Origin: a virus
Taxonomy: Duplodnaviria; Caudoviricetes
Strand: one strand, 5' to 3'
IMG/VR virus record: IMGVR_UViG_3300027396_000061
Span: 1 to 33,042 of that record
DNA length: 33,042 bases
Shown: positions 2,467 to 33,042 of the stretch, piece after piece
Numbering within the stretch: the stretch's first letter is position 1
Layout of the letters: every line of letters begins with the position of its first letter
Program-made: the position numbers and the translations under genes
Notes under the pieces: model-generated
What the model was told of the DNA's origin: nothing
Databases searched by the model: none
Seen by the model: the letters and a program-made list of their open reading frames with translations, nothing else

Positions 2467-2471
2467 GGTTC

Positions 2472-3407
2472 TTAGGGAAGAGTGGCGAGAGGAGTCATGT
2501 CAAAGCCATAGGTCACAGTGCGCGGAGCAGTGCCCACAGTCGTCACCGTGATCGGGGCGTTGGACGCAAACACAAGGTCTGCACCACTACCCGGTGGACC
2601 AATCGGCCCTTGTGGACCAATCGGACCGGCAGGACCAGCAGGCCCCGCAGGGCCAGGGCCACCAGCAGGTCCCTGTGGTCCGGTATTCGCCAGCGTTACC
2701 CAAGCGCCAGCGTCTGCATCCCAGAACCGTTGGACCAGATCATCGGTATCGAACCACTGCTTACCGCTCTGTTCCTTCTGCGGCAGGCCGTAAGCAGTAG
2801 GGGTGCCGTCCTGCACATACGGATCAAGCCGAGCACTGATCGCATCGGTGGTGGCGATGAACTTGTCCTTGCCATCCTTCGGCCAGTCACCCAGCAGCTG
2901 GTCCAGCTTGTCGATGGTCTGGGCAATCTCTGTTGCTGTGCCCTTGTTTGGATCCTTGTTACGGGGCAGCTTGTTCCAGAACGCCAGGCTGGTCGCAGGG
3001 CTGCCACCACCTGGCACCGTCCACTGCCCATTGAGCAGCAACACCAGATTGTCGTGGTGTTCCTGAATCAGATACAGCCACTGCTTGTCTGATTCATTCA
3101 GATCATCCGCAATGATGTAGCTGCCATCCCTCCACTGAACGATCTGATCGTCTTCTGGCGTGATGCGCCTGACGGTCAACACCTCAGCTGGCTTGGGTGT
3201 GGTCCCTGCTACCGGGGCCTGGGGTGCAACGGTCAGCTGAATCTGCGTACCGCTGGTCCAGTTGTAGTCAGTCCCATCCTTCAGCTCCTTCCCGTCCAGG
3301 TAGACGTGAACGTGAACCCGTTGCAGATATGGGAAGGGAACGGAGAAGTTCTTCGCAACCCCGTCCCCTGTGTATTGCCGGTATGAGTAAGGGGTTGGTA
3401 TGGCCAT
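2472..3407 (-). CDS. T7 gp17-like tail fibre N-terminal adaptor with collagen-like segment
   Basis: N-terminus YTGDGVAKNFSVPFPYL...VHVYLDG...LTVRRITP...ADDLN is typical of the T7 tail-fibre attachment domain. Follows the internal virion genes. Confidence 0.88.
   Translation of the reverse strand: MAIPTPYSYRQYTGDGVAKNFSVPFPYLQRVHVHVYLDGKELKDGTDYNWTSGTQIQLTVAPQAPVAGTTPKPAEVLTVRRITPEDDQIVQWRDGSYIIADDLNESDKQWLYLIQEHHDNLVLLLNGQWTVPGGGSPATSLAFWNKLPRNKDPNKGTATEIAQTIDKLDQLLGDWPKDGKDKFIATTDAISARLDPYVQDGTPTAYGLPQKEQSGKQWFDTDDLVQRFWDADAGAWVTLANTGPQGPAGGPGPAGPAGPAGPIGPQGPIGPPGSGADLVFASNAPITVTTVGTAPRTVTYGFDMTPLATLP
2589..2681 (-). repeat. Collagen-like Gly-X-Y repeat
   Basis: Encodes GPQGPAGGPGPAGPAGPAGPIGPQGPIGPPG. 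Confidence 0.9.
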
Positions 3408-6692: not shown

Positions 6693-9562
6693 TAGCACTT
6701 AGCTCCTTGTTGTTGGCGAAGGATCTGATCCCGTTGTTTGAGGAGATCGGCCGTCTCCTTATCCAAGACGGTGTTGGAACGCTTTGCACGTTCACGCTCA
6801 GCGTTGTACTCAGCACGCTTGGCCTTCTTGGCTGCCGCGGCCTGCTCCCTGCTGGGCTTTGGAATAGCTGCTTCGTTCACCACCACGGGATTGCCGTTGT
6901 CGAACTTCAGCGCATACACCGCTGGCTCACGAGGAGGTGTTGCAGCCTTCGCTTCCTGTGTTGCCTTGGCACCGGCAGCCATCTTGTCCAGCTGCGCCGG
7001 CGTCAGATCAGAACGCGCAGCAGGTGTTGGGTCACGGAAGCGCTCGCTGTAAGGAGCCAGGGAATAGAACCCCTCACCCAATACACCCAACTGCTTCCGC
7101 TCTTCCCACGTCAGCTTGTCCCACCCATGCGCCGCCATGTAGGCCTGACGCTGAGCACGCTGCGCTTCAGCATCCAGCACCTGGTACTCAAACCGCAGAC
7201 GCATCTCCTCCACCAGGGAGTCAACGTTCTTGCCGCCAGCCTTGTAGGTGGGCATGGCATCGGTGGCATACGCCAACGGCAGCTGACCACTTTCATCAGC
7301 CAGCAGCTCACCAATGAATGAACTCTGCTCAAACTTGGTGACAGGACGGTTGGGCAGTGGGCTGAAGGGTGCCTGTACCTCACCGTTAGCGATGGCCTTC
7401 TGCAGGATCTGAGCCTTCAGACGCTCACGGGTGTTGGCATCCATGCCACGAGGGGCATAGTCCTCAAGAGGAACCACCACCTCATTGCCATCGGCATCAA
7501 GCACCTTGCCCATGCCAGGCACATCCAGTTCCGCCGGTCGGTCAAACAGTGGTGCTGAGTCACCGAAGTCATTGGCCTTCAGCTGCATCGCCAACTGCTC
7601 TGGCTCTGGTGGCAGGTAGCGACCGCGCTGCTCGCTGATCTCAACCAGTGCATCAATGATGTCCTGCTTCTTGGCTTGCCATACCCGCCGGCCAGTGCGT
7701 GCCTTCACCAGTGCTGCCACCTCAGGGCTCGATTCAGGCATGGCCAAGCGACGCAGCTGATCACGTGTCCACCCCGTCAGTGCGTTGCGGTAGTCATCCG
7801 CTGTCCGGTAGCCGAACTCGCTCGCAGTGCTGGTGATCTCCTTGAACGGTGGCAGCTTCACCGCAGGCAGCAGATCAAGCTGACCCTGCTGTTCAATGCG
7901 CAGCTGCAGCTGATCACCAACCAGTGATTCAGGCACCCGTGCACGGGATTCAATGCCACGCAGCGCTAGCTCTGCATCAGTCAGTGCCTTCTCTGCTTTG
8001 GTCAGCAGACGCTTGGCACCGGTATCTGTGATCTCACCAGCATCACGGCGTGCATTGATCTGCTCGATCTGCTGCTGTGCTGCTGCAACCTGCTGCTGAA
8101 CAGCTTCCTGTTCCTGCACCATCCGTGCATCAGCATCCTCACGCCAGACACGGCTATGGATCTGACGCAGCTCTGCATCACTCAGCTCATCCAGGTTGGC
8201 CAGGTAGGTGTCTAACTCCGGCCGGCCATCAGGCATGTCCAGCTCCGGCTGCACCGGTGGCCGTGCATCCATCGCATCCTGTGCCCTGCCGCTTTGGATC
8301 AGATCACCGATCTGCTGGTCGATGTTCGCCAGCTCCTGACCAACGTCCTGTCCGCTCTCGGTGGCTTGTTTGATCAGCTGACCACGCTGCGTCTGCAGCT
8401 GTCTGACCTGCAGCCTGATCTCAGGGTCAACACCAGCATCAAGGCTGAACTCCAGCTGGCCACCTTCACCACGCTGCACCAGACCCATGCCTTCCAGGCG
8501 TTGGCGTTGCTGCTCGACCTGCTTGATCTGCGTCTGCTCTTGCAGTGAACGGCTGATTGCTGAGTCGTACTGCGCAGCTGGTGCTTCCAGCCGGCCGTAG
8601 TCAAAGCCCGTCTGACCAAAGGCAGGCAGTGACTTGCTGCCGTTATCCACCAGATCAGCAGCTGCAGCCGGTGGCAGTGCAGGACCAGCAGGTGCCTGCG
8701 GCATGTACGGCGCCAGCTCTGCATCAGCCAGCTCGTCTAACCAACCCAACCCACCGGTGGCCATCCCTTCACGGATGGGTTTGATCAATGCACCAGCACC
8801 AATCAATGCAAGCGGTGCAGCTAGACCCTCAACACCAAGCGACTTGCCCAGGGCCTGCAGGTAGTTATCGCCAGGCTCAACACGACCCGGCAGCTTCAGG
8901 CCAAAGGCGTCACCCAGGTTCGCCAGGTTGCCGTCCTGTGCATCGAGGAACGGAACAGCAAGCGTGGTGCTGACCAGTGCCTCGCCAACGTTCTTCCCAG
9001 CGTTCAGACCAGCACGCAGTGTTGGGTTCACCTTCGCTGCAACAGCTGCACTCTTGACGGCCTGCGTCTTCTTCAACGCTTGCGCTGCTTGTTGCAGTCG
9101 GCGGATGTTCTGCAGTCGGCCAAGGATTCCGATACCCACCAGCTCAGCACCTATCCCCTCGCCAACCTCCAGACCTGCCTGGTCTGATGGCCCCACGTAC
9201 TGCCCCACCCCAGCACGCCAGGGGTTCAGGCGACGTGCGTTTTGATCGCTGATCGTCCAAGCATCCGATACATCAATCGGCTTGCCCTGGACCAGATCAC
9301 CAACAGCATTACCCAGCTTGCTGATGCCATTCACCGGGCCAGTGAAGATGCCCATCTTGGTGTCAGGGCTGGCCAGGACATTGGCGAACTGCGTCAGACC
9401 CTTCAGGACAGGGCCAACAACAGGCACAGAACCAGCAGCGTTCTCAATGCGCTGGTTACCAGCAGCCCGTGCCTCACCCGCACCCATCTTTGGTGGCGTC
9501 TTAGGCGGTGACCACGTGGGTTCGTAGCTATCGACTTCAGGTGGGAGATCGAACTTCGGCAT
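6692..9562 (-). CDS. Additional large internal virion protein (956 aa), Gln-rich coiled coil
   Basis: Long ORF between the gp15-like and gp16-like genes, with N-terminal hydrophobic/Gly segments followed by Q/E-rich helices. Function inferred from position only. Confidence 0.6.
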   Translation of the reverse strand: MPKFDLPPEVDSYEPTWSPPKTPPKMGAGEARAAGNQRIENAAGSVPVVGPVLKGLTQFANVLASPDTKMGIFTGPVNGISKLGNAVGDLVQGKPIDVSDAWTISDQNARRLNPWRAGVGQYVGPSDQAGLEVGEGIGAELVGIGILGRLQNIRRLQQAAQALKKTQAVKSAAVAAKVNPTLRAGLNAGKNVGEALVSTTLAVPFLDAQDGNLANLGDAFGLKLPGRVEPGDNYLQALGKSLGVEGLAAPLALIGAGALIKPIREGMATGGLGWLDELADAELAPYMPQAPAGPALPPAAAADLVDNGSKSLPAFGQTGFDYGRLEAPAAQYDSAISRSLQEQTQIKQVEQQRQRLEGMGLVQRGEGGQLEFSLDAGVDPEIRLQVRQLQTQRGQLIKQATESGQDVGQELANIDQQIGDLIQSGRAQDAMDARPPVQPELDMPDGRPELDTYLANLDELSDAELRQIHSRVWREDADARMVQEQEAVQQQVAAAQQQIEQINARRDAGEITDTGAKRLLTKAEKALTDAELALRGIESRARVPESLVGDQLQLRIEQQGQLDLLPAVKLPPFKEITSTASEFGYRTADDYRNALTGWTRDQLRRLAMPESSPEVAALVKARTGRRVWQAKKQDIIDALVEISEQRGRYLPPEPEQLAMQLKANDFGDSAPLFDRPAELDVPGMGKVLDADGNEVVVPLEDYAPRGMDANTRERLKAQILQKAIANGEVQAPFSPLPNRPVTKFEQSSFIGELLADESGQLPLAYATDAMPTYKAGGKNVDSLVEEMRLRFEYQVLDAEAQRAQRQAYMAAHGWDKLTWEERKQLGVLGEGFYSLAPYSERFRDPTPAARSDLTPAQLDKMAAGAKATQEAKAATPPREPAVYALKFDNGNPVVVNEAAIPKPSREQAAAAKKAKRAEYNAERERAKRSNTVLDKETADLLKQRDQILRQQQGAKC

Positions 9563-9565
9563 GGG

Positions 9566-12433
9566 TCAGCGTCCTGATAGTTGTTTGCGAGCAGCGATCA
9601 GTGCTTGTCTCACGCGAGCAGCACCAACAGATGCACGGTTCCCGGCCTTGTCGCCGTCGTAGTAGCCACGGCCATTAGGGCCAGCGACCCCAGCCCACTC
9701 CATGGACAAGTCCTGGTGTGCACCGGTCAGGTCGTTGCTCTCGCCGCGTAGATAGGCAGCAAGCCGCTCACGCTTGCCACCCAATGCCAGACCCCAGAAC
9801 AACTTGGTCTGCACATCAGGTGTCATCACCTCATTGCCTGTCAGCCCGGCGTCACGACGTGCCCTTGCCAGCACACCAGGGGTGAACTGATAAGCACCAA
9901 CGGCGAACACCTTGCCCTTGGATTGCAGCGCCTCCACCTGCTTGATGGTCATGCTGGTCAACCGCATCTGGCTGGCAGAACCAGTGGTGCCGTAGTTGAC
10001 GCTGTTCCATCCACCCTCGCCAGCAGAGACAGTGGCAGCCAACCCACCCTTGTCACCAGCAATCGTGGAAACACGGCCAGGCTTCTCATCAGCAAAGCGC
10101 TGATAGCTGGGAGGCAATGTTGCTGCTGCAGCTGGTGGCGTGAGCATGTTCATCAGCCAGCTGCCAGGTGCCATTGGGTTGAACGGCGCCTGACCGATCA
10201 CAGCCTGGTAATTGGCACTCGATACCTGCTGACCTTGCCGCTGCTTCTCCACCTCCTTCTGCAGGTATTGCCTGATCCCACCTCGTGGATCCAGCTGTGG
10301 GTAGAAACGCAGCTGCTCAAGCAGGAACTTGTTGGTGCTGGTCTTGGCGCGATTGGCCAAGCGATACAGCTCAGCACTCACCGGCTTGCCCTTACCCACA
10401 TTCACCAACTCCTCGCGTAACCACTGCCCCTCCATCACGGGCTGTACACGGAAGCGTTGTGCTGCTGTATCTGACAGCTGACCAGCAGCAGACTTCGGAA
10501 CACCGCGCACCTTCTCGCTGGGCTCAGTGCCAACCTCCGCAGCACCAACCTTCTTGGCACCCACCTCACCAGGGTTCAACCCCGTGGCTTGCTTATAGGC
10601 ATCCTTGTATTCCTGCCCCTTGCGTACCTCGGTGACGGCCTGATTCAGCAGGACGTTCTTGGTAGCAGGTGTCAGTGGTTGGCCAGGGTTCTTGGCCTGC
10701 CACTCGCCCAGCTTGGTCTCGAACGCACGGACGTACAGGTCCTCCACCCTGCTAGCGAAAGCACCAGCCCTGGCATCAGCAGCACCAGCAGCACCAGCAG
10801 CACTCTGCCCACCCTGGATTGCAGCAAGGAAAGCGCTCTGCTCTCCCTTCTTCGCCAGCAACTTGGCGACAGGGCCAGCCTTCAGGTCCTGCTGAACAGC
10901 GCTATCAATCCCCTTCTGGATGCCAGGAGTGAAGGCCTCCGCCTGCTTGACCTTCTCATCCAGCAGACCACGTAACTCCTTGAGCTTTGCCTCCTGCAGC
11001 TGCCGAGTGGGCTGACCAGCAGCAATGCTCCTGACCTGTTCACGCAAGGCCTGCACAGCACCAGGACTGCGCAGCTCAGTGATCGTCAGGTCATTGATCT
11101 GATCACGCAGGATGTCCTCCTGAATTGGATCAGCGGCATAGGCCTCAGCAGCAAACGTGCTGCGATCCTTCATCTTCCCGCCCATGTAGCCATCGAGATC
11201 TCGATAGCCCTTGGCTGCTGCCTGGTTGCGGAACTCCAGCAATGCACCGGCATACGCCGGATCAGTGGGAAGCATTGAGCCAGGCATCCCAGCCTGGTTC
11301 CACAACCCATCTAGCTCGTTCTCAATCCCCTGCTGCTCGTTCTCATACGCCTTCAGCCGTGCGTCATTACCACGGTTGGTCAGCTCAACAGCACCCAGCG
11401 GATTGCTGGCACCCCATGTCGGACGGCTCTTGTCACCAGGATTGCCGCCCTGCACAAAGGTCAGCACATCACGCAGCCCAGGCACCTGGCCATACGTGCC
11501 ATACAGCTGCGTCTGCAGTGCCTTCACTGCTTCTGATCGATCGGTGCCACCAACCATCGACAGCGTGCGATCAAGCTCTGCCGTCATCAGCAGGCCACCC
11601 AACTGCGCAAACCGTGGATCACCTAGTCGGATGATCTCACCGTTAAACGGGATGCCGTTCTGTGCATAGCCCTGCAGCAACGCACCCATGGACGCAACGC
11701 CCATGTCGATGGTGTTCTGCTTAACCGTCTGCGCATACAGCGTTTGCTGTTTCTCGCTGTACTTGTCCCACGCTTGGTTGAGCTTGGGCACCGTATAGAA
11801 CTGAGCTTCAAGCTCATCGCCCGTCAGCCCGTACTTGCTCATCACCTCCTGGGTGATCTGAGCCTTGCGCTGCATCAAGGCAGGGCTGCCCGGCTGCATG
11901 GCGGCCAGCTGACCTTGGTTATTGATGAGGTCAGAAGACAGCGCGTTGTCGATGCTCTGCCCCGCCAGCTGCGCTGCAGCACGACGGCGACCAATCAGCT
12001 TCCAAGGGTTGCTGTCCTGCAGTAACTGCGCAGCAACTGGATCCCTCTTCTGCAGCTGGCTAACCGTGGTCGCGGCATTGATCGCACCCTGCTCTTGCTG
12101 CAGCTGCATACCCAGCGCCGCCTTGGCTGACTGGTTCTTCAGCTCGTCGTAGTAACCAGACTCAATCTGACCACTGACATACGAAACAATCCCCGTCTCA
12201 GTCAGGCTCAACAGCGTCTTGCTGAACGGTGCCAGCGCTGTCGCTACCTGTTGAAACTGGTTATACCCCTGAACACTGCCACCACTGCCTTGCTGCAGTT
12301 GGACAACCCCACTCGGGGAATCAAGCAGTGCAGGGCGTGCAGCACCTGCAGTTTGGATCTGAGCCGGTGAAACGAAAGCACCCAGCGGCTTAGCGCCAGG
12401 GCTGACCTCACCAAATGGAAGACGTTGTGCCAT
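9566..12433 (-). CDS. Internal virion protein gp15-like with C-terminal lysozyme-like domain
   Basis: Follows gp14. C-terminal AGEGGWNSVN...MTIKQV...AVGAYQFTP...PDVQ...EWAG resembles lambda-lysozyme-like muralytic domains. Confidence 0.75.
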   Translation of the reverse strand: MAQRLPFGEVSPGAKPLGAFVSPAQIQTAGAARPALLDSPSGVVQLQQGSGGSVQGYNQFQQVATALAPFSKTLLSLTETGIVSYVSGQIESGYYDELKNQSAKAALGMQLQQEQGAINAATTVSQLQKRDPVAAQLLQDSNPWKLIGRRRAAAQLAGQSIDNALSSDLINNQGQLAAMQPGSPALMQRKAQITQEVMSKYGLTGDELEAQFYTVPKLNQAWDKYSEKQQTLYAQTVKQNTIDMGVASMGALLQGYAQNGIPFNGEIIRLGDPRFAQLGGLLMTAELDRTLSMVGGTDRSEAVKALQTQLYGTYGQVPGLRDVLTFVQGGNPGDKSRPTWGASNPLGAVELTNRGNDARLKAYENEQQGIENELDGLWNQAGMPGSMLPTDPAYAGALLEFRNQAAAKGYRDLDGYMGGKMKDRSTFAAEAYAADPIQEDILRDQINDLTITELRSPGAVQALREQVRSIAAGQPTRQLQEAKLKELRGLLDEKVKQAEAFTPGIQKGIDSAVQQDLKAGPVAKLLAKKGEQSAFLAAIQGGQSAAGAAGAADARAGAFASRVEDLYVRAFETKLGEWQAKNPGQPLTPATKNVLLNQAVTEVRKGQEYKDAYKQATGLNPGEVGAKKVGAAEVGTEPSEKVRGVPKSAAGQLSDTAAQRFRVQPVMEGQWLREELVNVGKGKPVSAELYRLANRAKTSTNKFLLEQLRFYPQLDPRGGIRQYLQKEVEKQRQGQQVSSANYQAVIGQAPFNPMAPGSWLMNMLTPPAAAATLPPSYQRFADEKPGRVSTIAGDKGGLAATVSAGEGGWNSVNYGTTGSASQMRLTSMTIKQVEALQSKGKVFAVGAYQFTPGVLARARRDAGLTGNEVMTPDVQTKLFWGLALGGKRERLAAYLRGESNDLTGAHQDLSMEWAGVAGPNGRGYYDGDKAGNRASVGAARVRQALIAARKQLSGR

Positions 12434-22277: not shown

Positions 22278-23021
22278 TCAGGCTACCGGCGGGTTCCAGA
22301 GGATCGGAACTCCCCGTTCATGGTCATACTCACCGCTGCGCAGTATTCGTGCACATCGGGCTTGTGTGATCGCATAGCGCTGATCAAAGCCTGCCTTCTC
22401 ATAGGCAGCCAGCACCTTGCTCCACATCTCCAGTTCAGTGAGACAACCAGCCAATAACTTGGCAGCTGTCACCGGGCCGTACTTCGGACAACCGGGATAG
22501 TTATCCGCTGAATCACCGGTCAGCACCTGGGTGTAGAAGGCGAGATCTGCTTCCCGCAGGCTGATGTGCTCGACCTGACCATCAACAAGGTGACGACCCG
22601 GCAGGGTCTTCATGTCCTTGTCCATGCTGTAGATCACGTCGCCTTCCTCATAGAGGATGCCGAGCACGTCATCACCCTCGACCTCGGGCAGGCGAGCGAT
22701 GTTCCAGCCGCAGGAGGCTGCAGCTGTAGACACCCACTCGATCAGTGCGCCGTAGCCAGCAGGGCGACGCATCTTCTTGCGTTGTGCCTTGTACTTCGGC
22801 CACACCCCATAACGGAAGGTGCTGCTATCGCTGAAGACCAGCATCGGCTGAGCAGCAGGCACGGCTTCCATTGCCAGAGCGATCTGCTCTTGGAAGCCGA
22901 GCTTCGCGTCGGAATGACGGCACATGTAGGTCCAGTCATCCCCGTGCCAGTTGATCTCCACCTCCGAGCCGGCAGCGGCGCGGTAGAGGAAATACTCGGC
23001 ATCAACCAGCAGCTTTGACAT
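22278..23021 (-). CDS. 5'-3' exonuclease (T7 gp6-like)
   Basis: LLVDAEY, FRY...P.YKAQR, EGDDVLG, SMDKDM, LTGDSADNYPGCP..GPVTA. Confidence 0.92.
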   Translation of the reverse strand: MSKLLVDAEYFLYRAAAGSEVEINWHGDDWTYMCRHSDAKLGFQEQIALAMEAVPAAQPMLVFSDSSTFRYGVWPKYKAQRKKMRRPAGYGALIEWVSTAAASCGWNIARLPEVEGDDVLGILYEEGDVIYSMDKDMKTLPGRHLVDGQVEHISLREADLAFYTQVLTGDSADNYPGCPKYGPVTAAKLLAGCLTELEMWSKVLAAYEKAGFDQRYAITQARCARILRSGEYDHERGVPILWNPPVA

Positions 23022-23220
23022 AGGGGTAGAGCGGGAGGATGCGTGGATCAAGGCAAGGCGTCACCTGTTCCAATGGCTGACCGGTGTAGAAGATCTGGCC
23101 ACAGCAGAAGCATTTGCGACGCCTCATGCGAAATCCACGCTTGAGGAAGGTCTGCTGACAGCGGGTGTCACCACTGCCGCAACCAGGGCAGGGCGGATGG
23201 TTAGGACTCTTGATCCCCAT
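23002..23220 (-). CDS. Stand-alone NrdR-like zinc-ribbon protein
   Basis: CPGCGSGDTR...RMRRRKCFCCGQIFYT. Confidence 0.7.
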   Translation of the reverse strand: MGIKSPNHPPCPGCGSGDTRCQQTFLKRGFRMRRRKCFCCGQIFYTGQPLEQVTPCLDPRILPLYPYVKAAG

Positions 23221-23434
23221 CCTTCTTCTCCGGTGTTTCGCAATCGCGCTTGATCCGATCCGCGATCTCATTGGTCATCAGGAAACAGATCCGGGCCTGG
23301 CTTTCATCCGGTGCCCAGGTTCTGATCTCCTCAGCCAGGTGGTAAAGCACCGCCTTCATCCGACGGCGATCGTCAATGCCGTACTCAGCAAAAGACCAGT
23401 ACAGCTCAGTGCAGGCATCAAGAAGGTTGCTCAT
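23201..23434 (-). CDS. Hypothetical protein
   Basis: 77 aa ORF overlapping both neighbours in a tightly packed operon. Confidence 0.6.
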   Translation of the reverse strand: MSNLLDACTELYWSFAEYGIDDRRRMKAVLYHLAEEIRTWAPDESQARICFLMTNEIADRIKRDCETPEKKDGDQES

Positions 23435-23987: not shown

Positions 23988-24193
23988 AGATACCCTCGAT
24001 GGTTGTGTTTCCTGTATGCCTCCATGTCCCGGAAGGACATGTCCAAGAACTTGGGATTGGCCTCTAGGAACTCACGACTCGGAAGGATGGGATCTTTCGC
24101 TTTTGCGTTGAACTGTTGGATGGACCACTTCCCTGTAACCAAGCCCCGTTCAAGGATTCCCCTGAGCTGAGCCTCGGTCATCAGAGGTTCCAT
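23984..24193 (-). CDS. Hypothetical protein
   Basis: 69 aa ORF with a GAGGAGG RBS upstream. Confidence 0.65.
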   Translation of the reverse strand: MEPLMTEAQLRGILERGLVTGKWSIQQFNAKAKDPILPSREFLEANPKFLDMSFRDMEAYRKHNHRGYL

Positions 24194-24713
24194 CTGTTTC
24201 CTCCTCAGCGAGTTGTTTGAGATACGCGGCCCACTGCCGTGGTGTCAGCCCTGTTGATTCAGAAGCTGCTGGTAGAGCGGGCCATTGTTCAGTCGTGAAC
24301 ACCTGATAGGCCCCGGAGTTATGCGGGTCAGGTGATGCAGCAATGGATTGCGGCGAGGGAGGCAACGCCGCCAGCTGTTGCGCTGAAGGCTGCAGCTGAA
24401 TGGGCAAGGAATCCTTGAACCCCCAGCTGCGATTGGCCTGTCCGTTCTCGCTGCGATACAGCGGCGACATCAACTCCTTCCACGTGGGATAGCGGAGGAA
24501 GTCCTTGCCACCGGTGTCCTGCAGCCATTGCTCTGCAGACCAGAGGAACTGAGCGTCATTCACCTCTGGAAACTCAGCGGTGAAGGACACGTATTTGAGC
24601 TGACAGATCTGAGGCGCCCAGCGATCGGCCTCCTTGATGCGCAGTTGTGCTGCGACCATCTCAGCTACCGCCAGGAATGTTTCGATCGTCAGCCCGCTGC
24701 TCTGGTATTCCAT
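24150..24713 (-). CDS. Putative helicase loader/inhibitor (G39P/lambda P position)
   Basis: F.EV.DAQF.WSAEQWL...F.RYPTWKEL resembles the loader-family pattern. Coupled downstream of the initiator-like gene. Confidence 0.5.
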   Translation of the reverse strand: MEYQSSGLTIETFLAVAEMVAAQLRIKEADRWAPQICQLKYVSFTAEFPEVNDAQFLWSAEQWLQDTGGKDFLRYPTWKELMSPLYRSENGQANRSWGFKDSLPIQLQPSAQQLAALPPSPQSIAASPDPHNSGAYQVFTTEQWPALPAASESTGLTPRQWAAYLKQLAEEETDGTSDDRGSAQGNP

Positions 24714-25261
24714 TGCTCAATGGCGGCTTGCATCGCCGAAGACTTCGGCTGAAGACCAGAGGCCGGCGGTGGTGGCACATCCTTCAGGTACTCAGGCTTG
24801 AGTGCCTGCCATCCGTGTTCAACACCGGCCTGCGCCAAGACCAACTGCTTCCAGTTCGGAAGAGCAGCAAGGCGCAGGATGCTCTGCTTCCAGGCGTTCT
24901 CAGTCCAGGCAGCCTTTGAACCGTGCTTACTCAGACGGCTCTCGTTCCACCAGGAGAGAAGTGCCTCGCACACCTCTGGCTCAAACGGTTCCAGAAGGGG
25001 GTCAGCCGGCTGCGCGACAAACCGTTCCAGCGCTTTGCGCCGTACTGGCTTGACCTCAGCTGGTTCTGGATCTCCTTCTGCTTCTGGTTCAACAGAGCTT
25101 TCAAACCATCCAGCCGCTCGGCCTGCGTAGACCGCCACCCGCTCAAACGTCGTGAACGTCTTACCGCAACCACGGCAAATACGAATACGGCGATCGTGAT
25201 CAGGGTTCGCTCTGGTTTCACTAACTCTGGAATCAGGGTGATTGCAATGGGGACAGTTCAC
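24689..25261 (-). CDS. NrdR-like Zn ribbon fused to replication-initiator-like C-terminal domain
   Basis: GTG start overlaps the rusA stop. N-terminus CPHCNHPDSRVSETR...RRIRICRGCGKTFTTFERV; C-terminus WWNESR..K...WTENAWK..L..L...GVEHGWQAL. Confidence 0.6.
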   Translation of the reverse strand: MNCPHCNHPDSRVSETRANPDHDRRIRICRGCGKTFTTFERVAVYAGRAAGWFESSVEPEAEGDPEPAEVKPVRRKALERFVAQPADPLLEPFEPEVCEALLSWWNESRLSKHGSKAAWTENAWKQSILRLAALPNWKQLVLAQAGVEHGWQALKPEYLKDVPPPPASGLQPKSSAMQAAIEQWNTRAAG

Positions 25262-25620
25262 TGATAGATGACTTTGAGAACAATGAATTGATCCGCTTTC
25301 TTGCTGCCGACCCACTCCAACTCCAAGCGGCGGATAACAGTCACTCGATCAGAAGCCCAGACCACACCTTGACCTGCATCCATGACGGCACCGGCAAGGT
25401 TGTCCAGATCGCTGGTCCCAGGACCGTGGAAGATCATGTGGATAGCGATGACTTCCCCTTTCTCAAGAGGTGGATGTGGCCACCACTCGGAAAGGATCGA
25501 AGCGGTGTTCTCCATCCAGGCCCGGTACTTCTCATCGGTGTAGGCCTTGCCAAACCGGCGGAAGCGCGGACGTGCCTTGGGCTGGAGATTGACAGGCAGA
25601 ACGAAGTCCGCCTGCTTCAT
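25258..25620 (-). CDS. rusA: RusA-family Holliday junction resolvase
   Basis: PKARPRF...DLDNL...MDA..GVVW.SD motifs, 120 aa. Confidence 0.85.
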   Translation of the reverse strand: MKQADFVLPVNLQPKARPRFRRFGKAYTDEKYRAWMENTASILSEWWPHPPLEKGEVIAIHMIFHGPGTSDLDNLAGAVMDAGQGVVWASDRVTVIRRLELEWVGSKKADQFIVLKVIYQ

Positions 25621-26285
25621 CAGAAGGGGACTTCCTCAGCGAGCACATCAGCGGCTTCGGCTTGCACCTCAGCAGCGCGTGCCTTCAGCTTTTCGGCGAA
25701 GGTCGGCTCATCGTTGAAGGGGACAGCAGCAGCAGGGGTATCCACCACGTAGCCCTCTTCCTCGCCAAAGACGCTCTCAACCGCCTCCTTCGAGTAGCCA
25801 ACCAGCTCGATGACCTGGACTGATTCCAGTTCGAGACTCATTCCCTTGCCGCTGGGGCCAGACCAGGGCCAGGGGGTGAAGGCCACTTTGATCTTGCTGC
25901 CGTTGCCGATCAGCTGGTCATGGGGCCAGTAGTTCTTCTTGGAATCCAGGACGATCGGACCATCCTTGATGCCGCCGCGTGCAGTCTCCTGCTTGCGCTT
26001 GAAGTTGAACTTGACCTTGCCGGTGGGGACAGGGCGACCCTTCTCATCCTTGATGGTCTCCTCAGCAAAGGGCCAGCCATGCGTGGCGACCTTGGGCTTG
26101 GAGCCATGGAACTCCTCAAAGGAGGCTTCCAGTCGCTCAATGAAGGCAATCGTCTCGGGATCCTGGGGATCAAGGAGCAGGGAGACGGACCACGCTTTGG
26201 GGTTGTCCTCATAGGCGGTGGGTTCGCCAAGGATCTTTGCCCAGAGCGCCTCACCCCGTGGGGAGACGATCAGCTCGCGTGCCAT
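25620..26285 (-). CDS. ssDNA-binding protein (T7 gp2.5-like)
   Basis: SPRGEALWAK..EP, IGNGSKIKV, SLELESVQVIELV and an acidic tail ending in F. ATG 26285. Confidence 0.9.
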   Translation of the reverse strand: MARELIVSPRGEALWAKILGEPTAYEDNPKAWSVSLLLDPQDPETIAFIERLEASFEEFHGSKPKVATHGWPFAEETIKDEKGRPVPTGKVKFNFKRKQETARGGIKDGPIVLDSKKNYWPHDQLIGNGSKIKVAFTPWPWSGPSGKGMSLELESVQVIELVGYSKEAVESVFGEEEGYVVDTPAAAVPFNDEPTFAEKLKARAAEVQAEAADVLAEEVPF

Positions 26286-26379: not shown

Positions 26380-28734
26380 TCAACTGAAGCAGTAGGGGTT
26401 CTGGCCGATTTCACCTTCGCAAAGATCTCCAACCATCGGTGGGTGCGGTAGGTGTACGCCTGCCCTCTTGCCAATTTCTACCCGCATCTCAGCCAGCCAG
26501 TCCTGCCGATACAGAGCCGACAGCTCATGCAGCAACGCATGGTGCAACCAGTCCGCCCTGGCGGGGATCGTGGCGAAGCAGTCGTGGTTGGTCAGTACCG
26601 GAGTTTCGATCTGTGCACATCTGAGGACCACTGCCTGACAGTGGGCGGCATCAAAGGTGTGGATCGTGTTGGCGGTGATGCCGCGATTGGTTGCGCGAGC
26701 GCTCAGCTCACCCGGCTCCCAGCCGGCATCAGCCTGCTGCCAGCGCCGTGCACCATGAAGGTCCGTGCGCACCTTCTGCTGACGTTCCAGCTCATTACCA
26801 AGCGCGATCGGGAACCCCAGTGGACTGGTCCACTCAATCCGCTTCTGCTTCTTCACGCATAAAGCGCTGACTTTCCTGAGCCACTTCTCCAGCTCAACGC
26901 AGCTCTTCAGCTCAGCCCCAATCGCAATGTTCAGCTTGTGCGCCAGGTACTGCGCAGGAAGCGTGTACTCCCTTGCCCAGCGCTCAACCGGTACGTCAGG
27001 CTTCTTCTGCCGTAACCAGTCGATCAGTTGTTCAACGATTCCGAAATGACGAGCGCCATAGATCGTCGTCATGGTTGGCCCTTTGGCGAGGTCACGGCCG
27101 ATCGGGTACTGCAACCACATCTCAGCGAGACGTTGATCACGCGGGTCGAACGAATCCAGATCCGCCTGGAGGAGATTCAGCAGGCAGCCTGAGATGTAGG
27201 CATAGAGATCAGAACGTCGATCCCCGATGATGTTGGTGTGCAGCGCCAGCTGACGGTCACGGCACAGCGCACCGATGACCCCCATCCCGCTTGCGGTCTG
27301 GTCAAAGCGAATCGGCACCCCGCTGTAGAGGTCGCCAGCCACCACATCCGAGATGGCGCGTGCGATCTGGAGGAACTGCCAGGGATCCTTGGCGCTCTTC
27401 CAGAGATCCAAGCGATCCAACGGCTGCGCCGAAATTGCTTGCAGACGAGAGAGGTGGTCCCTACCCCACTCCACTCTCTCGTCCCAGGTGCAGTGGCCTA
27501 ACCCGTAGTGCCCAGCGGCGGCCGACAGCATCTGGTTGAACGCATCATCGTCAACCGCTTCCTTTTGCGCAAACGAGATCAGGGCCTTCTGATGATCAGG
27601 ACCCTGGTGACCAGCAATGCGGCTTGAGCAATACAGCCGGCCACGGAAGTCAAAGTCATGCTCCAGCCAGATCGGATAGCCCTGCACCTCGGTGAACTGC
27701 CGCAGTGACTCCTCGATCCGTGCACGCTCTGGCGCCTGCTGCGTCGCTAGCCACCGTTCCTGTGGGTCACGCTGCACTGAAAACAGACCAGGCAGGTTGC
27801 AGTCCCATGCCTCACGCTGCACCGCCACCATCCAGGGGTCGATCTGCAGCTGCTGCTGTTCCACGTAATTCACCACCTCCAACTGAGTGGCGCAGCTCTT
27901 GGCCGTGATGTGGGACAGATCCATCGGCCGGCGGCTGGAAACCAGCGCCTTGCCGTCACGCCTCACGTCGCACCAGGGTTCAGGCGGCACGATCGACGGC
28001 AGCATCCGTACCGGCAGTGGTCGCGGCGGGTTGAGGCGCACCACCTCAAGCACGTCCTCAGTAGGCAGCACCCGTGGGATCCGCTCATCACTGAAGGTGA
28101 TCAAGTTGGTGTTGGCAGCGATCACCTCCAGCAGCAACTGACCCAGCTCACGGCGGTCCTGCACCGTCCAACCCGATGGGTCCACATGCAACTGACCCAA
28201 CACTCGGGTTGAAACCGCACGCTTGCCGTACTCCTTCTTGACCATCTCAGCGAGCACCGCGCCGCGACCCCTCCGTAGGCGGATGGCCTTCAGTTCATCC
28301 TGCAAAGCGCGACCAATGCGCTTAGCCAGAATCGGTCGCTGTGGGGTGGTTGAGATCCCATCAATCACCACACCAAGAGCTATCGCCGCAATGGACCGTG
28401 GGCCGCGATCACAGAAGTGCAGTAGTAGCGGCCAAGCGCTGAAGTGCTTCCCCGCACGGGTGGGGTTCTCCAGCAGATCTGTGAGCAGCGCATCAATCGC
28501 AACCCCGACGCTTTCGCCATACAGCTCAAACAGGGCAGCCCCGTAACCCGTGGAACCTTCTCGGCCCTTATCCCTGAGGTTGCGCTGCATGGCCTCAGCA
28601 CGCTCCTTGGCCCGCCTGACCTCCCTCCTGAGCCTCTGCAGCTGCAGTTCATCCACCGGTGTGGAAGGCGCGTTTTCGGGTTTCACCGTGCAGAGTTGGC
28701 TGCTTTCAGCAGTAATTCCACCCCACCAGTGCAC
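26380..28734 (-). CDS. Single-subunit T7-like DNA-directed RNA polymerase
   Basis: DFRGRLY, motif A PIRFDQTASG, motif B RDLAKGPTMTTIYGA, ANTIHTFDAAH, motif C NHDCF. Exact start is uncertain (several GTGs). Confidence 0.95.
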   Translation of the reverse strand: MHWWGGITAESSQLCTVKPENAPSTPVDELQLQRLRREVRRAKERAEAMQRNLRDKGREGSTGYGAALFELYGESVGVAIDALLTDLLENPTRAGKHFSAWPLLLHFCDRGPRSIAAIALGVVIDGISTTPQRPILAKRIGRALQDELKAIRLRRGRGAVLAEMVKKEYGKRAVSTRVLGQLHVDPSGWTVQDRRELGQLLLEVIAANTNLITFSDERIPRVLPTEDVLEVVRLNPPRPLPVRMLPSIVPPEPWCDVRRDGKALVSSRRPMDLSHITAKSCATQLEVVNYVEQQQLQIDPWMVAVQREAWDCNLPGLFSVQRDPQERWLATQQAPERARIEESLRQFTEVQGYPIWLEHDFDFRGRLYCSSRIAGHQGPDHQKALISFAQKEAVDDDAFNQMLSAAAGHYGLGHCTWDERVEWGRDHLSRLQAISAQPLDRLDLWKSAKDPWQFLQIARAISDVVAGDLYSGVPIRFDQTASGMGVIGALCRDRQLALHTNIIGDRRSDLYAYISGCLLNLLQADLDSFDPRDQRLAEMWLQYPIGRDLAKGPTMTTIYGARHFGIVEQLIDWLRQKKPDVPVERWAREYTLPAQYLAHKLNIAIGAELKSCVELEKWLRKVSALCVKKQKRIEWTSPLGFPIALGNELERQQKVRTDLHGARRWQQADAGWEPGELSARATNRGITANTIHTFDAAHCQAVVLRCAQIETPVLTNHDCFATIPARADWLHHALLHELSALYRQDWLAEMRVEIGKRAGVHLPHPPMVGDLCEGEIGQNPYCFS

Positions 28735-28869: not shown

Positions 28870-29091
28870 TTAGAAGGATCCCGTGCTCTGCCGACTGCCG
28901 CAGTCTGCGGGGTTGAACCAGCAGAAATTGGCATCCGGTGGACGCAGGAACATTACAGCCTTCAACTCATCCAGCTGTTGGCGGTAGCGACGGGCGGATG
29001 CAAGCGCTTCAGCGGCCACCTCAAACGGGTCGGCTCCTGATTCCGCTAGCTCCTTCTTGATCTCCCTGATCTCTCTTTGCGCCGTGGTCAT
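28870..29091 (-). CDS. Small early hypothetical protein
   Basis: ATG 29091 with a GGAGGT RBS, helical N-terminus. Confidence 0.6.
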   Translation of the reverse strand: MTTAQREIREIKKELAESGADPFEVAAEALASARRYRQQLDELKAVMFLRPPDANFCWFNPADCGSRQSTGSF

Positions 29092-29181
29092 GGAGACCTC
29101 CAGCAATTTATGGACTAACTGTAACCAAACGATGCAGTTATCCCTAATACTTTCTGTGCACCGGTGGGCTACAACAGGCCA

Positions 29182-29772
29182 ATGATGAGCGACATCACCT
29201 TCTCCGCTGAGCGCTGGGCCGAGTTCTGGAAGTTCTTCCGTGGCGAACCGCAGCAGCTCAAGGCCATCGAGATCCTCCGGCAGCACATCCTGGAATCCGA
29301 CCCCTCGTTGCTGACCGAATCAGCAGCGTGGACGCAGGCTTTCCATGAGCGGCCCCCTGCACCAGCCGATTACCCGAACACCTGGGATGGGGTGAAGGCA
29401 GCAGCGCAGGCTTGCGGTGCCAAGTTCCCAGAGCTGGTTGCTGCTCAGTGGTCCCTGGAATCCGCCCACGGCACGGCTGTCAGCGGCAAGAACAACTTCT
29501 TCGGCATCAAGGGCAGCGGCTCGCAGCACGTCACCCAGGAAGAGGTGAACGGCCAGATGGTCACCATCACCGCTGGCTTCATCGACTTCCCCACCCTCAA
29601 GGACTCGGTGAACTACCTCGTGTCCCGCTGGTATCTGGATTACAAGGGCTACCAGGGGGTGAACCACTGCCGCACGGCTGAGGACGCGGCGTATGACCTC
29701 AAGCGCCAGGGTTACGCCACCGACAGCTCCTACCCGCAGAAGCTGGTCCGCATCATGCAGGAGCACCGATGA
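29182..29772 (+). CDS. Endolysin, GH73 glucosaminidase/FlgJ-like
   Basis: AAQWSLESAHG, NNFFGIKG, F.DF.TL.DSV, GYATDSSYPQKL. Confidence 0.88.
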   Translation: MMSDITFSAERWAEFWKFFRGEPQQLKAIEILRQHILESDPSLLTESAAWTQAFHERPPAPADYPNTWDGVKAAAQACGAKFPELVAAQWSLESAHGTAVSGKNNFFGIKGSGSQHVTQEEVNGQMVTITAGFIDFPTLKDSVNYLVSRWYLDYKGYQGVNHCRTAEDAAYDLKRQGYATDSSYPQKLVRIMQEHR

Positions 29773-30086
29773 AGCGAGCCAAGCTCGACCTCGGCGGCGG
29801 GATGCTCATCGAGACAGGCCCTGACTGGAATGGCCGCTACTACGTGGCCTATCGCAATGGCTGCTCGATGTTCTTCCGTGACGTGAAGCTGTTGCGGAAG
29901 TTCCTCAGCCTTCCGGTGAAGACCGATTCCAGGGCCAAGTTCGATGCCTGGATTGCAGAGGTCACAGCCGAGAGACCCAAGCTGCAACAGGAAGGAATCA
30001 GCCCTGAGCTAGCAGCTACCGGGTTCGGCCCTGAGGTTCACCTCGATGAGTCGGACCCGAACTTCCAAACACGGATGGTCACCTGA
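29769..30086 (+). CDS. Hypothetical protein coupled to lysin
   Basis: ATGA overlap with the lysin stop and typical codon usage. Confidence 0.65.
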   Translation: MKRAKLDLGGGMLIETGPDWNGRYYVAYRNGCSMFFRDVKLLRKFLSLPVKTDSRAKFDAWIAEVTAERPKLQQEGISPELAATGFGPEVHLDESDPNFQTRMVT

Positions 30087-30366
30087 ACGCCCTCGTCTCC
30101 AGCTCCTTCACCCGGTCTCTCAACGTGGTGATCTCACGTTCCAATGCCTGAGCGTGGAACTTTGCTTCCACTGATTCAGGCGCAGGAATGATCTTGCCGT
30201 CAGGTCCCAGCAGGATTCGTGTCGCCTGTTCGAGCTTGTCGATCCTGCCGTCCAGTTGAACGCCAGCACTGATCATCCAAGCCAACAAGCCACTGACAGC
30301 AGTGAGCAGTGCAGCGGCACCTGCTGCATGTTCCTTGGCGATCAGTGACTCTCTAGGGCTCGTCAT
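30079..30366 (-). CDS. Membrane protein with coiled coil (holin/spanin-like candidate)
   Basis: One hydrophobic helix followed by heptad patterns (LDGRIDKLE, LEREITTLRDRVKELE). Confidence 0.5.
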   Translation of the reverse strand: MTSPRESLIAKEHAAGAAALLTAVSGLLAWMISAGVQLDGRIDKLEQATRILLGPDGKIIPAPESVEAKFHAQALEREITTLRDRVKELETRAFR

Positions 30367-30602
30367 TCAGGTGGGTTACTGCGCAAGCCAATCAACGTGG
30401 CTAGCAATGCCGTGAGCACCTGCAGGGCACGGTTCTCCGCGTCTTCACAGACAGCAGGCTCATGTTGCAACTTGCCCTGCATGGCGGCATCAAACATCCG
30501 TGGTCCGATGTAAAAGGTGCAGGCTGCACTCCAACCCACAGACAGCACCGCAGTGGTGGCAACCACCAACACGATGCTGCTTGTGAGCCAACGAGGTGTC
30601 AT
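30363..30602 (-). CDS. Small two-TM membrane protein (holin candidate)
   Basis: Two hydrophobic segments, 79 aa, overlapping start/stop with both neighbours. Confidence 0.5.
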   Translation of the reverse strand: MTPRWLTSSIVLVVATTAVLSVGWSAACTFYIGPRMFDAAMQGKLQHEPAVCEDAENRALQVLTALLATLIGLRSNPPE

Positions 30603-33042
30603 CAGTTCACCTTGATGAAGTAGTTGACGGCGTAGGACTTGGGCTTGGTTTCAGCATCACCGCCGCCTGTGATTTGAACGGTGTGGGTGTGAGCGCCATC
30701 GCTATCCATCCACCGCCCAGAAACGTCTGCCACACCCCCTGCCGAGATACCTTCGCCAACTGTTTGAGCAGCGGGGTAATAGCCAGCACCCGAGTAAGCG
30801 CTCATCCGCCTTGACCACAGGTTGTGCGTATGGCCTCCGGCGGAGTCGGTTGAACCAGTGAAGGCGTTCTTTGGACGTGCAGTGCTGTCCTCAGTAAATC
30901 CGTTGAGCGCACCGCCGTCCCAACCAGACAGGCTCTGCCCAGCCATCCGCAGGAAGGAGCCCCGCAGGTCAGGCAGTGTTGTGGCACCAGTGAGAGTTGC
31001 GTAGGCAGTACCCGTGCAATCACCACCAGCAGCAAGACGCCACTTGCTGCCATCGGCGCCCATTGCAGTCTGGAACTGCTGAGGGGTCAGCACCGACTGA
31101 ATGATTGTTCCAACAGGAGTAGTGGAAACAGCTGTTGCTGTTGTGGCTACTGCCACCTTCACCCATGCCGTTCCATTCCAGTGCCACGTCTCAGCGACAT
31201 CTTCAACGAGGTGTGTCTCGTTAGTGCGGGGATCAGCGAACTGCCAGGCTGTGCCATCCCAGCGAGCCAGCTTTCCTGCGTGCCCAGCCCATAACCCAGT
31301 CGGGACTGTGCCCGTGATGTAGAGGTCGTTGAGTGTTGGTACAGCAGGAGGATCATTGGCAATCGCCATGACCGACTCCTCATGTTCCAACGTGGTGGTG
31401 AGGGTGGCGAGCTTGGTGTCGACCTCAACCTTGCTGTAGGCCGTGGCGGCGTTGTAGTAATCAGCCGTCCAGTTTTCCCAGTGATCAGTGTTGAACCGTA
31501 GCAGCTGATTCGTGACTGGAGTGGTGATGGTGACATCGCCAAGGTCTTTGAGGCCAGTTGGCACCAGATCCTTGAAGGCCAACCCACCGCCGATGGCACC
31601 AGCGGTTCGATGCACGCCATCGCCAGGTGCAGGGGGTGGCGGACTCCCCGGTGCTGTGAACACCGTGATGTCGCCGGTTGTGATGTTGATGTACTGATCA
31701 CCCGGCACTGGTGCCCAGACCTTGGGGTCAGGCTGGGTATCGGAACCCATGCCGTAGTTGTCGGCCCTGCTGGCAACCTTGCTGGCATCCCATGCGCCAG
31801 TGCCCAGGAAGATGATGGGGCTGGTGAGTGTCTTGGGCTCCCACCTCGCCAGGGTGTCATTCCAGACAGGCACCTGCCCATCCGTTGCGGTGGCTAGTTC
31901 GTTGCAATCGCCAAGGCTTTCAAGGCTCAGGCCGGCGATGTAGTTCTTGACCGCCTCCACTGATGGGACAGCGGAGATGTCGTTGGTGGCGGTGTTGATG
32001 TCGCTGACAAACTCCTCGATCACCTGGCCGGGGTGGCCGTCGAAGGTGATGCCAGCCACGTCCTCAATCGTGGTGCTGGCCACCCACTGATCACCAATCG
32101 GATCCCAGGTCAGGAACCGTGTCTCCCCATAGCTGCCAGGTGGCAGGGTCTCAACATTGCTCAGCTCCTCCAGCCGGATGCTCGGATGCGGAGTGATGTC
32201 CACCCATTTGTTGGCGGCAGTCACGGCTCCAGCCATGACATCAACAGTGACGCCGCTATCGGCTGTTGCTCTGAATGTTCCGGCAGCGCGGGTGACGGTG
32301 ACACTGAAGCCAGCTGTCAGGGTCGGTGCGCCAAAGGCAGTCAGCGCCGTGTTGCCCAGCATTGCTGCCTGGACATTGGTAGCCAGGCGTGATGCGACTG
32401 CATCGCCCGCAACGGTGGTGTAGTTGAAGCTGACAGGAGCCCCTCCACCTGTTGGGGTCAGAACGAAGTGGATTGTGGTGCCATCTGCCAGGCCATCTGG
32501 CATGGAGAACCGGAGGGCCGTGCCATCAGTTGGCGTACCCCCACCAGGAGTTGTTGCCCCAGGCTCCTCATCACCCGCGACGACGTTGGAAGTAGCTCGC
32601 CAGAAGGCTTGGTTGTGGCTGACAATCGAGCCTGATTCCCAGCTGGTATCGGTCCAGGGCTGGAAGCCCCCCAGACTCAGCCAACGCTGCTTGGAGAGCA
32701 GGTCGCCGCTGACGTGGACGTACTTGGATCCGTCACTTTGGATCCAGTCGCCTGGGTTCAGGACGCTGCCAACGAGCGCTGGCGCTAGTGGGGTGTCACC
32801 TGCTGTGACGACGTAGCCCGATGCTCCTGCCCAGGTCCAGTAGTAGCCACGGTTGACGGCAGCAGGCGCTGGCAGGGCGCTGATTCCAGGCTGCTGCAGG
32901 GTGCTGCGGAAGAGTGAACCGGCGGCAATCCACTGCTTGATCGTGTCCTCGCTCAGGCTCTCAACCCAGGCCGCACCATTCCAGAACTTGATCTCCTTGT
33001 GCAGGTTCTCAGCGGTGAACTGCACATCCCCCTGCTTCAGCT
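30602..33042 (-). CDS. Large tail fibre/virion protein with DUF2793-like and tail-collar motifs; 5' end outside window
   Basis: Frame is open to the window edge. Contains PP..P..ND.YI....PTGLWAGHAGKLA.WDGTAWQF..P (DUF2793-like), PVGTII...LPDLRGSFLR (collar) and GGHTH/AHTH...ETKPKSYAVNYFIK (fibre tip). Confidence 0.8.
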   Translation of the reverse strand, partial: LKQGDVQFTAENLHKEIKFWNGAAWVESLSEDTIKQWIAAGSLFRSTLQQPGISALPAPAAVNRGYYWTWAGASGYVVTAGDTPLAPALVGSVLNPGDWIQSDGSKYVHVSGDLLSKQRWLSLGGFQPWTDTSWESGSIVSHNQAFWRATSNVVAGDEEPGATTPGGGTPTDGTALRFSMPDGLADGTTIHFVLTPTGGGAPVSFNYTTVAGDAVASRLATNVQAAMLGNTALTAFGAPTLTAGFSVTVTRAAGTFRATADSGVTVDVMAGAVTAANKWVDITPHPSIRLEELSNVETLPPGSYGETRFLTWDPIGDQWVASTTIEDVAGITFDGHPGQVIEEFVSDINTATNDISAVPSVEAVKNYIAGLSLESLGDCNELATATDGQVPVWNDTLARWEPKTLTSPIIFLGTGAWDASKVASRADNYGMGSDTQPDPKVWAPVPGDQYINITTGDITVFTAPGSPPPPAPGDGVHRTAGAIGGGLAFKDLVPTGLKDLGDVTITTPVTNQLLRFNTDHWENWTADYYNAATAYSKVEVDTKLATLTTTLEHEESVMAIANDPPAVPTLNDLYITGTVPTGLWAGHAGKLARWDGTAWQFADPRTNETHLVEDVAETWHWNGTAWVKVAVATTATAVSTTPVGTIIQSVLTPQQFQTAMGADGSKWRLAAGGDCTGTAYATLTGATTLPDLRGSFLRMAGQSLSGWDGGALNGFTEDSTARPKNAFTGSTDSAGGHTHNLWSRRMSAYSGAGYYPAAQTVGEGISAGGVADVSGRWMDSDGAHTHTVQITGGGDAETKPKSYAVNYFIKVN

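Follow-up and report, generated by a model that had tools for sequence, protein, structure and literature searches.

Gene content of the window

The window—the whole 33,042-nt stretch of phage DNA analyzed here—carries a minus-strand gene block in the order T7-type RNA polymerase (RNAP), SSB, RusA, a 190-aa and a 187-aa gene, six ORFs, and exonuclease, followed by T7-type structural genes (Table 1). The 190-aa and 187-aa genes overlap by 25 nt, and RusA occupies the place of the T7 endonuclease I. An earlier note on this DNA had described the RNAP-to-exonuclease interval as filled by SSB, RusA, the 190-aa and 187-aa genes, and short ORFs, a description borne out by our ORF and family scan. T7-type portal, scaffold, capsid, tail tube, and nozzle genes are present, and the terminase comes from record G001. 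The 20 largest repeat families included no evident phage promoter repeats.

Table 1 Features of the replication block and its surroundings in the window
Feature	Coordinates	Strand	Evidence
T7-type single-subunit RNAP	26380..28734	-	PF00940 E 3.5e-45; phrog_414 E 7e-111
gp2.5-like SSB, tail EEVPF	25620..26285	-	phrog_112 E 1.9e-27
RusA resolvase	25258..25620	-	PF05866 E 2.6e-10
Candidate initiator, 190 aa	24689..25261	-	PF22811 E 6e-11; phrog_678 E 0.0016; structure model; C-domain profile matching P0251, P0253
Candidate G39P-like loader, 187 aa	24150..24713	-	model pLDDT 85.5; top fold match 1NO1, Z 5.6
Six short ORFs, 57-95 aa	23002..24193	-	ORF calls
Last of the six short ORFs: second stand-alone zinc ribbon, NrdR/Ogr-like, just upstream of exonuclease	23002-23271	-	phrog_10675 E 7e-4
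gp6-like 5'-3' exonuclease	22278..23051	-	PF02739 E 3.9e-13; phrog_107; 62% identity, S-SRP02 p034 region
Glucosaminidase endolysin (outside replication slot; covers lysis)	29164-29772	+	

The window represents part of the genome of an S-SRP02-like (clade S) member of the T7-like cyanophages. The annotated phages closest to its RNAP are S38-C3 (53%), S-SRP02 (48.5%), S37-C6 (33%), and S31-C1 (32%), and both an RNAP tree and a portal tree group the window with S-SRP02, the host of which is Synechococcus SR-C1. Matches to genome bins were cyanobacterial in four of seven cases.

CheckV rates the window as 78% complete and linear, and it carries no terminase. Record G001 is 100% identical to window positions 2586-31438 and, beyond the window, supplies genes for an integrase, a MarR-type protein, and an HTH_36 protein, together with terL and terS. 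A circular genome was ruled out, as a terminal repeat is absent and G001 shows the window to be incomplete. Where window 30602-33042 aligns with G001 8406-10700, the two are identical as far as window 31438 and diverge from there (72%) over the N-terminal stretch of a tail-fiber gene, reflecting either a fiber swap or an assembly difference. Three successive tail-fiber-like genes lie on the minus strand at 2-1435 and 1438-3407, and the one truncated at the contig end has an Mtd second domain (PF21916, E 1.5e-16). Window 28870-33042 and locus L085 (from G001) display a rearranged order, with an opposite-strand endolysin and a tail-fiber gene just upstream of RNAP, and the integrase and early genes beyond terL.

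Absence of polymerase and primase-helicase

The usual gp4 and gp5 replication genes of T7-like phages (Autographiviridae) were not detected here. None of the 37 window ORFs scanned matched the PolA, TOPRIM, DnaB, endonuclease I, or amidase families, in agreement with the earlier note, which had seen neither a family A polymerase nor TOPRIM/DnaB, endonuclease I, or amidase in the block. A PF00476 search of the window gave 0 matches, and a gp4 profile run against it in all six frames found no match. The earlier note had also pointed to the rest of the genome as a possible place for polA and dnaB; G001 has no match to PolA or DnaB_C, and the same holds for the near-complete relatives searched that have the two small genes (hereafter, the pair). 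Specifically, among 32 records searched, the 20 near-complete pair-carrying ones—including five with direct terminal repeats, plus S-SRP02—gave PolA in 0/20 and DnaB_C in 0/20, their sister records PolA in 0/9 and DnaB_C in 9/9, and other gp4 phages PolA in 2/3 and DnaB_C in 3/3. Relatives were also inspected for a helicase gene lying next to the pair: 150 inserted ORFs were clustered and viewed by eye, and none was helicase-like. The p014 product of S-SRP02 (234 aa; L001:10903-11607; PF02767, E 0.0065) bears the annotation Pol III beta subunit, and no homologs of it were found in 84 other loci compared.

The pair and gp4 are mutually exclusive

The presence of the pair in place of gp4 is real and widespread in clade S. 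Among 79 loci selected by RNAP alone, 71 reached the slot and eight ended short of it; the slot held gp4 in 38 and the pair in 33, with no locus having both or neither. In all 328 loci, the C-terminal domain (C-domain) of the 190-aa protein and the loader domain were each found in 199, gp4 occurred alongside either in none, and the two unpaired domain cases lay at contig ends. These 328 loci include many repeat fetches, the 183 complete pairs reducing to 62 distinct ones. Across pair-carrying loci, the loader gene directly follows the initiator gene, and the two overlap by 4-22 nt in 59 of the 62 distinct pairs.

The RNAP tree (69 rows, de-duplicated from 200, HTVC109P having been lost in the process) contains a 62-row clade (support 100) made up of 19 gp4 rows (100) and 43 pair rows (83). 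A portal tree of 30 rows, its root left open, has the same single split, and monophyly of the pair group was not rejected (p-AU 0.38). Since the exclusion of pair and gp4 falls on the trees as a single split, it reflects one evolutionary event rather than many independent ones. The gp4 sequences of the sisters group together on a long stem, and none of the 35 rows compared is a close donor; this favors, without proving, gp4 as the ancestral occupant of the slot. A single replacement of gp4 by the module is probable, after the lineage had lost its polymerase.

Individual loci depart from the common layout. In L177-L180, gp4 seems to be broken in two where the frame shifts ~100 codons from its start, and it is not preceded by a ribbon match. 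The pair-carrying loci L297, L299, L302, L306-L314, L318, and L327 are mostly without a RusA match and have other nuclease-like and small genes inserted between SSB and initiator.

The 190-aa protein, a candidate initiator

The structure model of the 190-aa protein comprises a zinc ribbon (residues 1-44), a flexible linker of low confidence, a helical domain (residues 80-160), and a conserved tail helix. The ribbon is of the NrdR type (PF22811) and matches an NrdR structure with a Z of 5.6 over 43 residues; the structural match stops at residue 44, and no family match to an ATP-cone follows. Ribbon and C-domain are in frame in 54 of the 62 distinct pairs by pattern and in six more by eye, and of the remaining two, one is cut by a contig end. 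In the other (L016:7480-8013), the frame changes between ribbon and C-domain and an ATG marks the point where they meet, owing to either a natural split or a sequence error.

The helical domain matches the 'replication initiation O-like' family weakly (phrog_678, E 0.0016; four of 35 members match). A profile of the C-domain searched against 1.84 billion proteins returned 78 matches, 20 of which were scanned. In two long proteins, the C-domain sits behind an initiator-type N-terminus: P0251 (421 aa; C-domain profile E 3e-21, HTH_36 E 1.8e-7, phrog_678 E 4e-15) and P0253 (415 aa; C-domain profile E 4.5e-20, initiator family phrog_4707 E 1.4e-9). Their genomic context was looked for and not recovered. 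P0277, P0278, and P0282 were discarded as C-domain relatives, being repeat-protein noise. Within the whole-protein model, the best solved fold for the C-domain was unrelated (Z 4.5). BFVD yielded nothing at E<=0.001 beyond S38-C3 orthologs and zinc ribbons, and Atlas rows comprised unnamed viral clusters (0.95) and Phg_2220_C (0.90).

The 190-aa protein itself harbors no winged helix, having the NrdR ribbon in its stead, and its gene showed neither iterons nor an AT-rich trough (repeated 8-mers, 5.45 vs 5.67 in controls). The assignment as initiator made in the earlier note finds support in the C-domain, which is common to winged-helix initiator-like proteins; the winged helix usual for such proteins and iterons were not found. 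Based on these domain relationships, the 190-aa protein is likely an initiator and we treat it as a candidate.

The 187-aa protein, a candidate helicase loader

The top fold match of the 187-aa model (pLDDT 85.5) is the SPP1 loader G39P (1NO1; rmsd 2.5 over 67/67 residues), with a Z of 5.6 that, for a small helical domain, lies below the tool's level of 8 and within its common-arrangement range. G39P was the only match with a Z of at least 5 among 48,161 chains; the next rows, AAA+ lid domains included, reached 4.5. The match carries weight because it was predicted beforehand—a G39P/P-type loader had been guessed in the earlier note, and G39P duly ranked first, if with a modest Z—because it covers the whole target, and because it is on a par with the Z of 5.5 to the same structure that the accessible text of PMC11087808 reports for VdhL1, an experimentally verified DnaB loader. 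No convincing sequence match to Pfam (G39P_N included), PHROG, or PDB was found for the 187-aa protein, and an Atlas row for G39P_N (0.76) is a lead only.

Co-folding of the initiator C-domain with the loader scored 0.50 vs 0.00 for the best control; the mark applied is reached by 116 of 157 solved and two of 215 mismatched pairs, with scores <=0.60 accounting for 18 of the 157 solved pairs and both mismatches. At least 78% of contacts were common between runs, and the partner's pLDDT was at least 75. The modeling weakly supports a complex between the candidate loader and the C-domain. Judging from the fold, the 187-aa protein is likely a G39P-like helicase loader, again as a candidate.

A host-like SSB tail

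Bacterial SSB tails recruit replisome proteins. The window SSB ends in EEVPF, like host SSBs: all six cyanobacterial SSBs from three bins end in EEEVPF or DDIPF. Tails ending in PF were found in 67/79 pair loci, 18/33 gp4 sisters, 1/6 PolA-carrying loci, and 0/4 reference phages, counts that refer to distinct tails from related, hence not independent, loci and to a small control set.

A host-DnaB-loading module likely replaced gp4

We consider it likely that a host-DnaB-loading module, consisting of the 190-aa initiator and the 187-aa G39P-like loader, replaced gp4. The basis observed here is the set of absences, the domain relationships, the exclusion of pair and gp4, and the host-like SSB tail, from which we infer the replication steps themselves. 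The origin would be bound by the zinc ribbon, or by a winged-helix protein encoded elsewhere, and its opening might be aided by transcription from the phage RNAP. The O-like domain of the 190-aa protein would recruit the loader, which would deliver host DnaB to the phage DNA. Host DnaG and Pol III would then copy the DNA with help from the phage SSB tail, and exonuclease and RusA could make and resolve concatemers for T7-type packaging. A union of T7 transcription and morphogenesis with host-dependent, temperate-style replication, as envisaged in the earlier note, is supported by the C-domain, the rank of G39P, and the pair/gp4 exclusion. Against the model, the accessible text of PMC3561973 states that SPP1 G39P serves a phage helicase and that G38P-G39P failed to support host replication in the condition tested.

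In a variant of this model that we regard as unlikely, the origin would be bound by a stand-alone winged-helix protein, with the 190-aa protein acting only as an adaptor to the loader. A stand-alone HTH_36 gene upstream of terL (L085:4756-5199 in G001; E 2e-5) was found with a single query in 17/17 pair genomes and 1/9 gp4 genomes, and HTH_36 also makes up the N-domain in P0251. In 14/18 loci, the stretch 246-544 nt upstream holds a conserved non-coding element that combines a G-run with ATCRCGCGA-AAAA and shows a skew flip from C-rich to G-rich, and the separate frames of ribbon and C-domain in L016 would likewise fit a division of labor. However, the likeness of the HTH_36 gene to P0251 is generic (probability 0.4%), and a site between the early genes and terL suits a packaging or terminal site. 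With a profile, the HTH_36 gene turns up in the gp4 loci L281 and L283 as well, and the gp4 phage S37-C6 has the element together with a divergent winged-helix gene in the same place; a winged-helix gene strictly specific to the pair lineage is thereby ruled out. The HTH_36 protein may be an origin binder or packaging factor. A full three-part host hijack in this widespread branch of cyanophages—distant winged-helix origin binder, zinc-ribbon adaptor with the initiator C-domain, and G39P-like loader for cyanobacterial DnaB, complemented by SSB tail mimicry, with all replication enzymes given up—appears similarly improbable; if true, it would mean that a family of phages whose hallmark is autonomous replication includes members with a split initiator.

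The element and the HTH_36 gene lie outside the window (L085:4460-5199 in G001), the element being upstream of both the HTH_36 gene and terL; it is common across clade S and constitutes a candidate origin or packaging site.

Quite unlikely in our view is that the 190-aa protein is a transcription regulator—NrdR, as GenBank labels its orthologs—and that the 187-aa protein acts as a block on host DnaB or does something else, copying being achieved via the host's PriA restart pathway, either at R-loops of the RNAP or at recombination forks. The ribbon does resemble NrdR (Z 5.6) and stands alone in the gp4 sisters, the PDB title of G39P names it a loader/inhibitor, and recombination-dependent replication would also suit a phage with an exonuclease, RusA, and an SSB tail of the host type. 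Yet the structural match to NrdR ends with the ribbon and no ATP-cone was matched, the C-domain belongs to initiator-like proteins, the pair occupies the exact slot of gp4 in the sisters, and a DnaB block would harm a phage without helicase.

Finally, it is very improbable that some other part of the genome conceals a divergent phage polymerase or helicase. The window is incomplete (78%), no Pfam match was obtained for three of its ORFs (955-1082 aa), and complete relatives were profiled for PolA and DnaB_C only. However, these large ORFs occupy the internal-virion-protein position, the extra ORFs of G001 are integrase, terminase, tail fiber, and small genes, and neither the five records with direct terminal repeats nor the isolate S-SRP02 has PolA or DnaB_C.

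Relation to published work and implications

The absence of polymerase and primase-helicase in clade S is already published, and the replacement module appears to be undescribed. The earlier note had cautioned that polymerase-less cyanopodoviruses might have been reported, and so they have, as MPP-C (PMC9860041) and clade S (PMC12695635), going by the accessible portions of both papers. In the latter, clade S is described as without DNA polymerase and S-SRP02 as missing the primase-helicase; we found no replacement mechanism for the missing enzymes in the part of that account available. Some Autographiviridae are without replication genes and may depend on the host (PMC12361551, accessible text), and clade S is unmentioned in the accessible text of PMC11348598. 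Our literature search, with supplements (that of PMC12695635 could bear on this point) and most subscription papers outside its reach, found no paper that reports a pair of initiator and loader for T7-like phages.

Only two of 50,697 phage records, S-SRP02 and S38-C3, were matched by either domain, and in these the pair genes are labeled 'NrdR regulator' and 'hypothetical'. The S-SRP02 ortholog of the gp6-like exonuclease is annotated as DNA polymerase I; as far as the accessible texts go, the S-SRP02 paper took the exonuclease as 'DNA polymerase', and PMC8790148 lists NrdR, RusA, and 'DNA polymerase I'. Two misleading labels, NrdR and DNA polymerase I, are thereby corrected.

Self-sufficient replication has its textbook example in the T7-like phages, and the clade S branch lost the primase-helicase besides the polymerase. 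The accessible text of PMC9860041 presents DNA copying in polymerase-less T7-like phages as an open question. The two small genes provide a concrete mechanism, testable in the cultured pair of S-SRP02 and Synechococcus SR-C1, with the gp4-bearing sister branch as a natural control. Surveys built on polymerase or primase genes overlook clade S phages.

Comparison with known systems

Lambda O/P recruits host DnaB, and lambda has its iterons inside O; within the gene of the candidate initiator, in contrast, none were found. The Vibrionaceae protein VdhL1 has a G39P-like fold and loads cellular DnaB (PMC11087808, accessible text). No sequence link between the proteins described here and either VdhL1 or lambda O/P was found. 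In SPP1 G38P-G39P-G40P, as proposed here, an initiator is followed by a loader of the G39P fold, and copying falls to host DnaG and polymerases (PMC3561973, accessible text); unlike the present phage, SPP1 is a siphovirus with its own helicase, whereas here no helicase was found, the candidate initiator bears a zinc ribbon, and the RNAP is of the T7 type.

The MPP-C cyanopodoviruses (P-SCSP1) are, like the window, T7-like and without DNA polymerase, and an SPP1-like recruitment of host Pol III is one option raised by their authors (PMC9860041, accessible text). They differ in that they keep a primase-helicase, as a core gene, and endonuclease I, and their RNAP identity is only 25%. MedDCM-OCT-S37-C6 (Oinezvirus) and S31-C1 (Nohivirus), the sister group on the RNAP tree, share the order RNAP-SSB-RusA-zinc ribbon and have no PolA, but their ribbon is a stand-alone ORF with a full gp4 primase-helicase gene behind it. 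S-SRP02 (MW822601) and MedDCM-OCT-S38-C3 (Stopalavirus) have the same gene order as the window, with orthologs of both genes at 49-54% and 55-61%.
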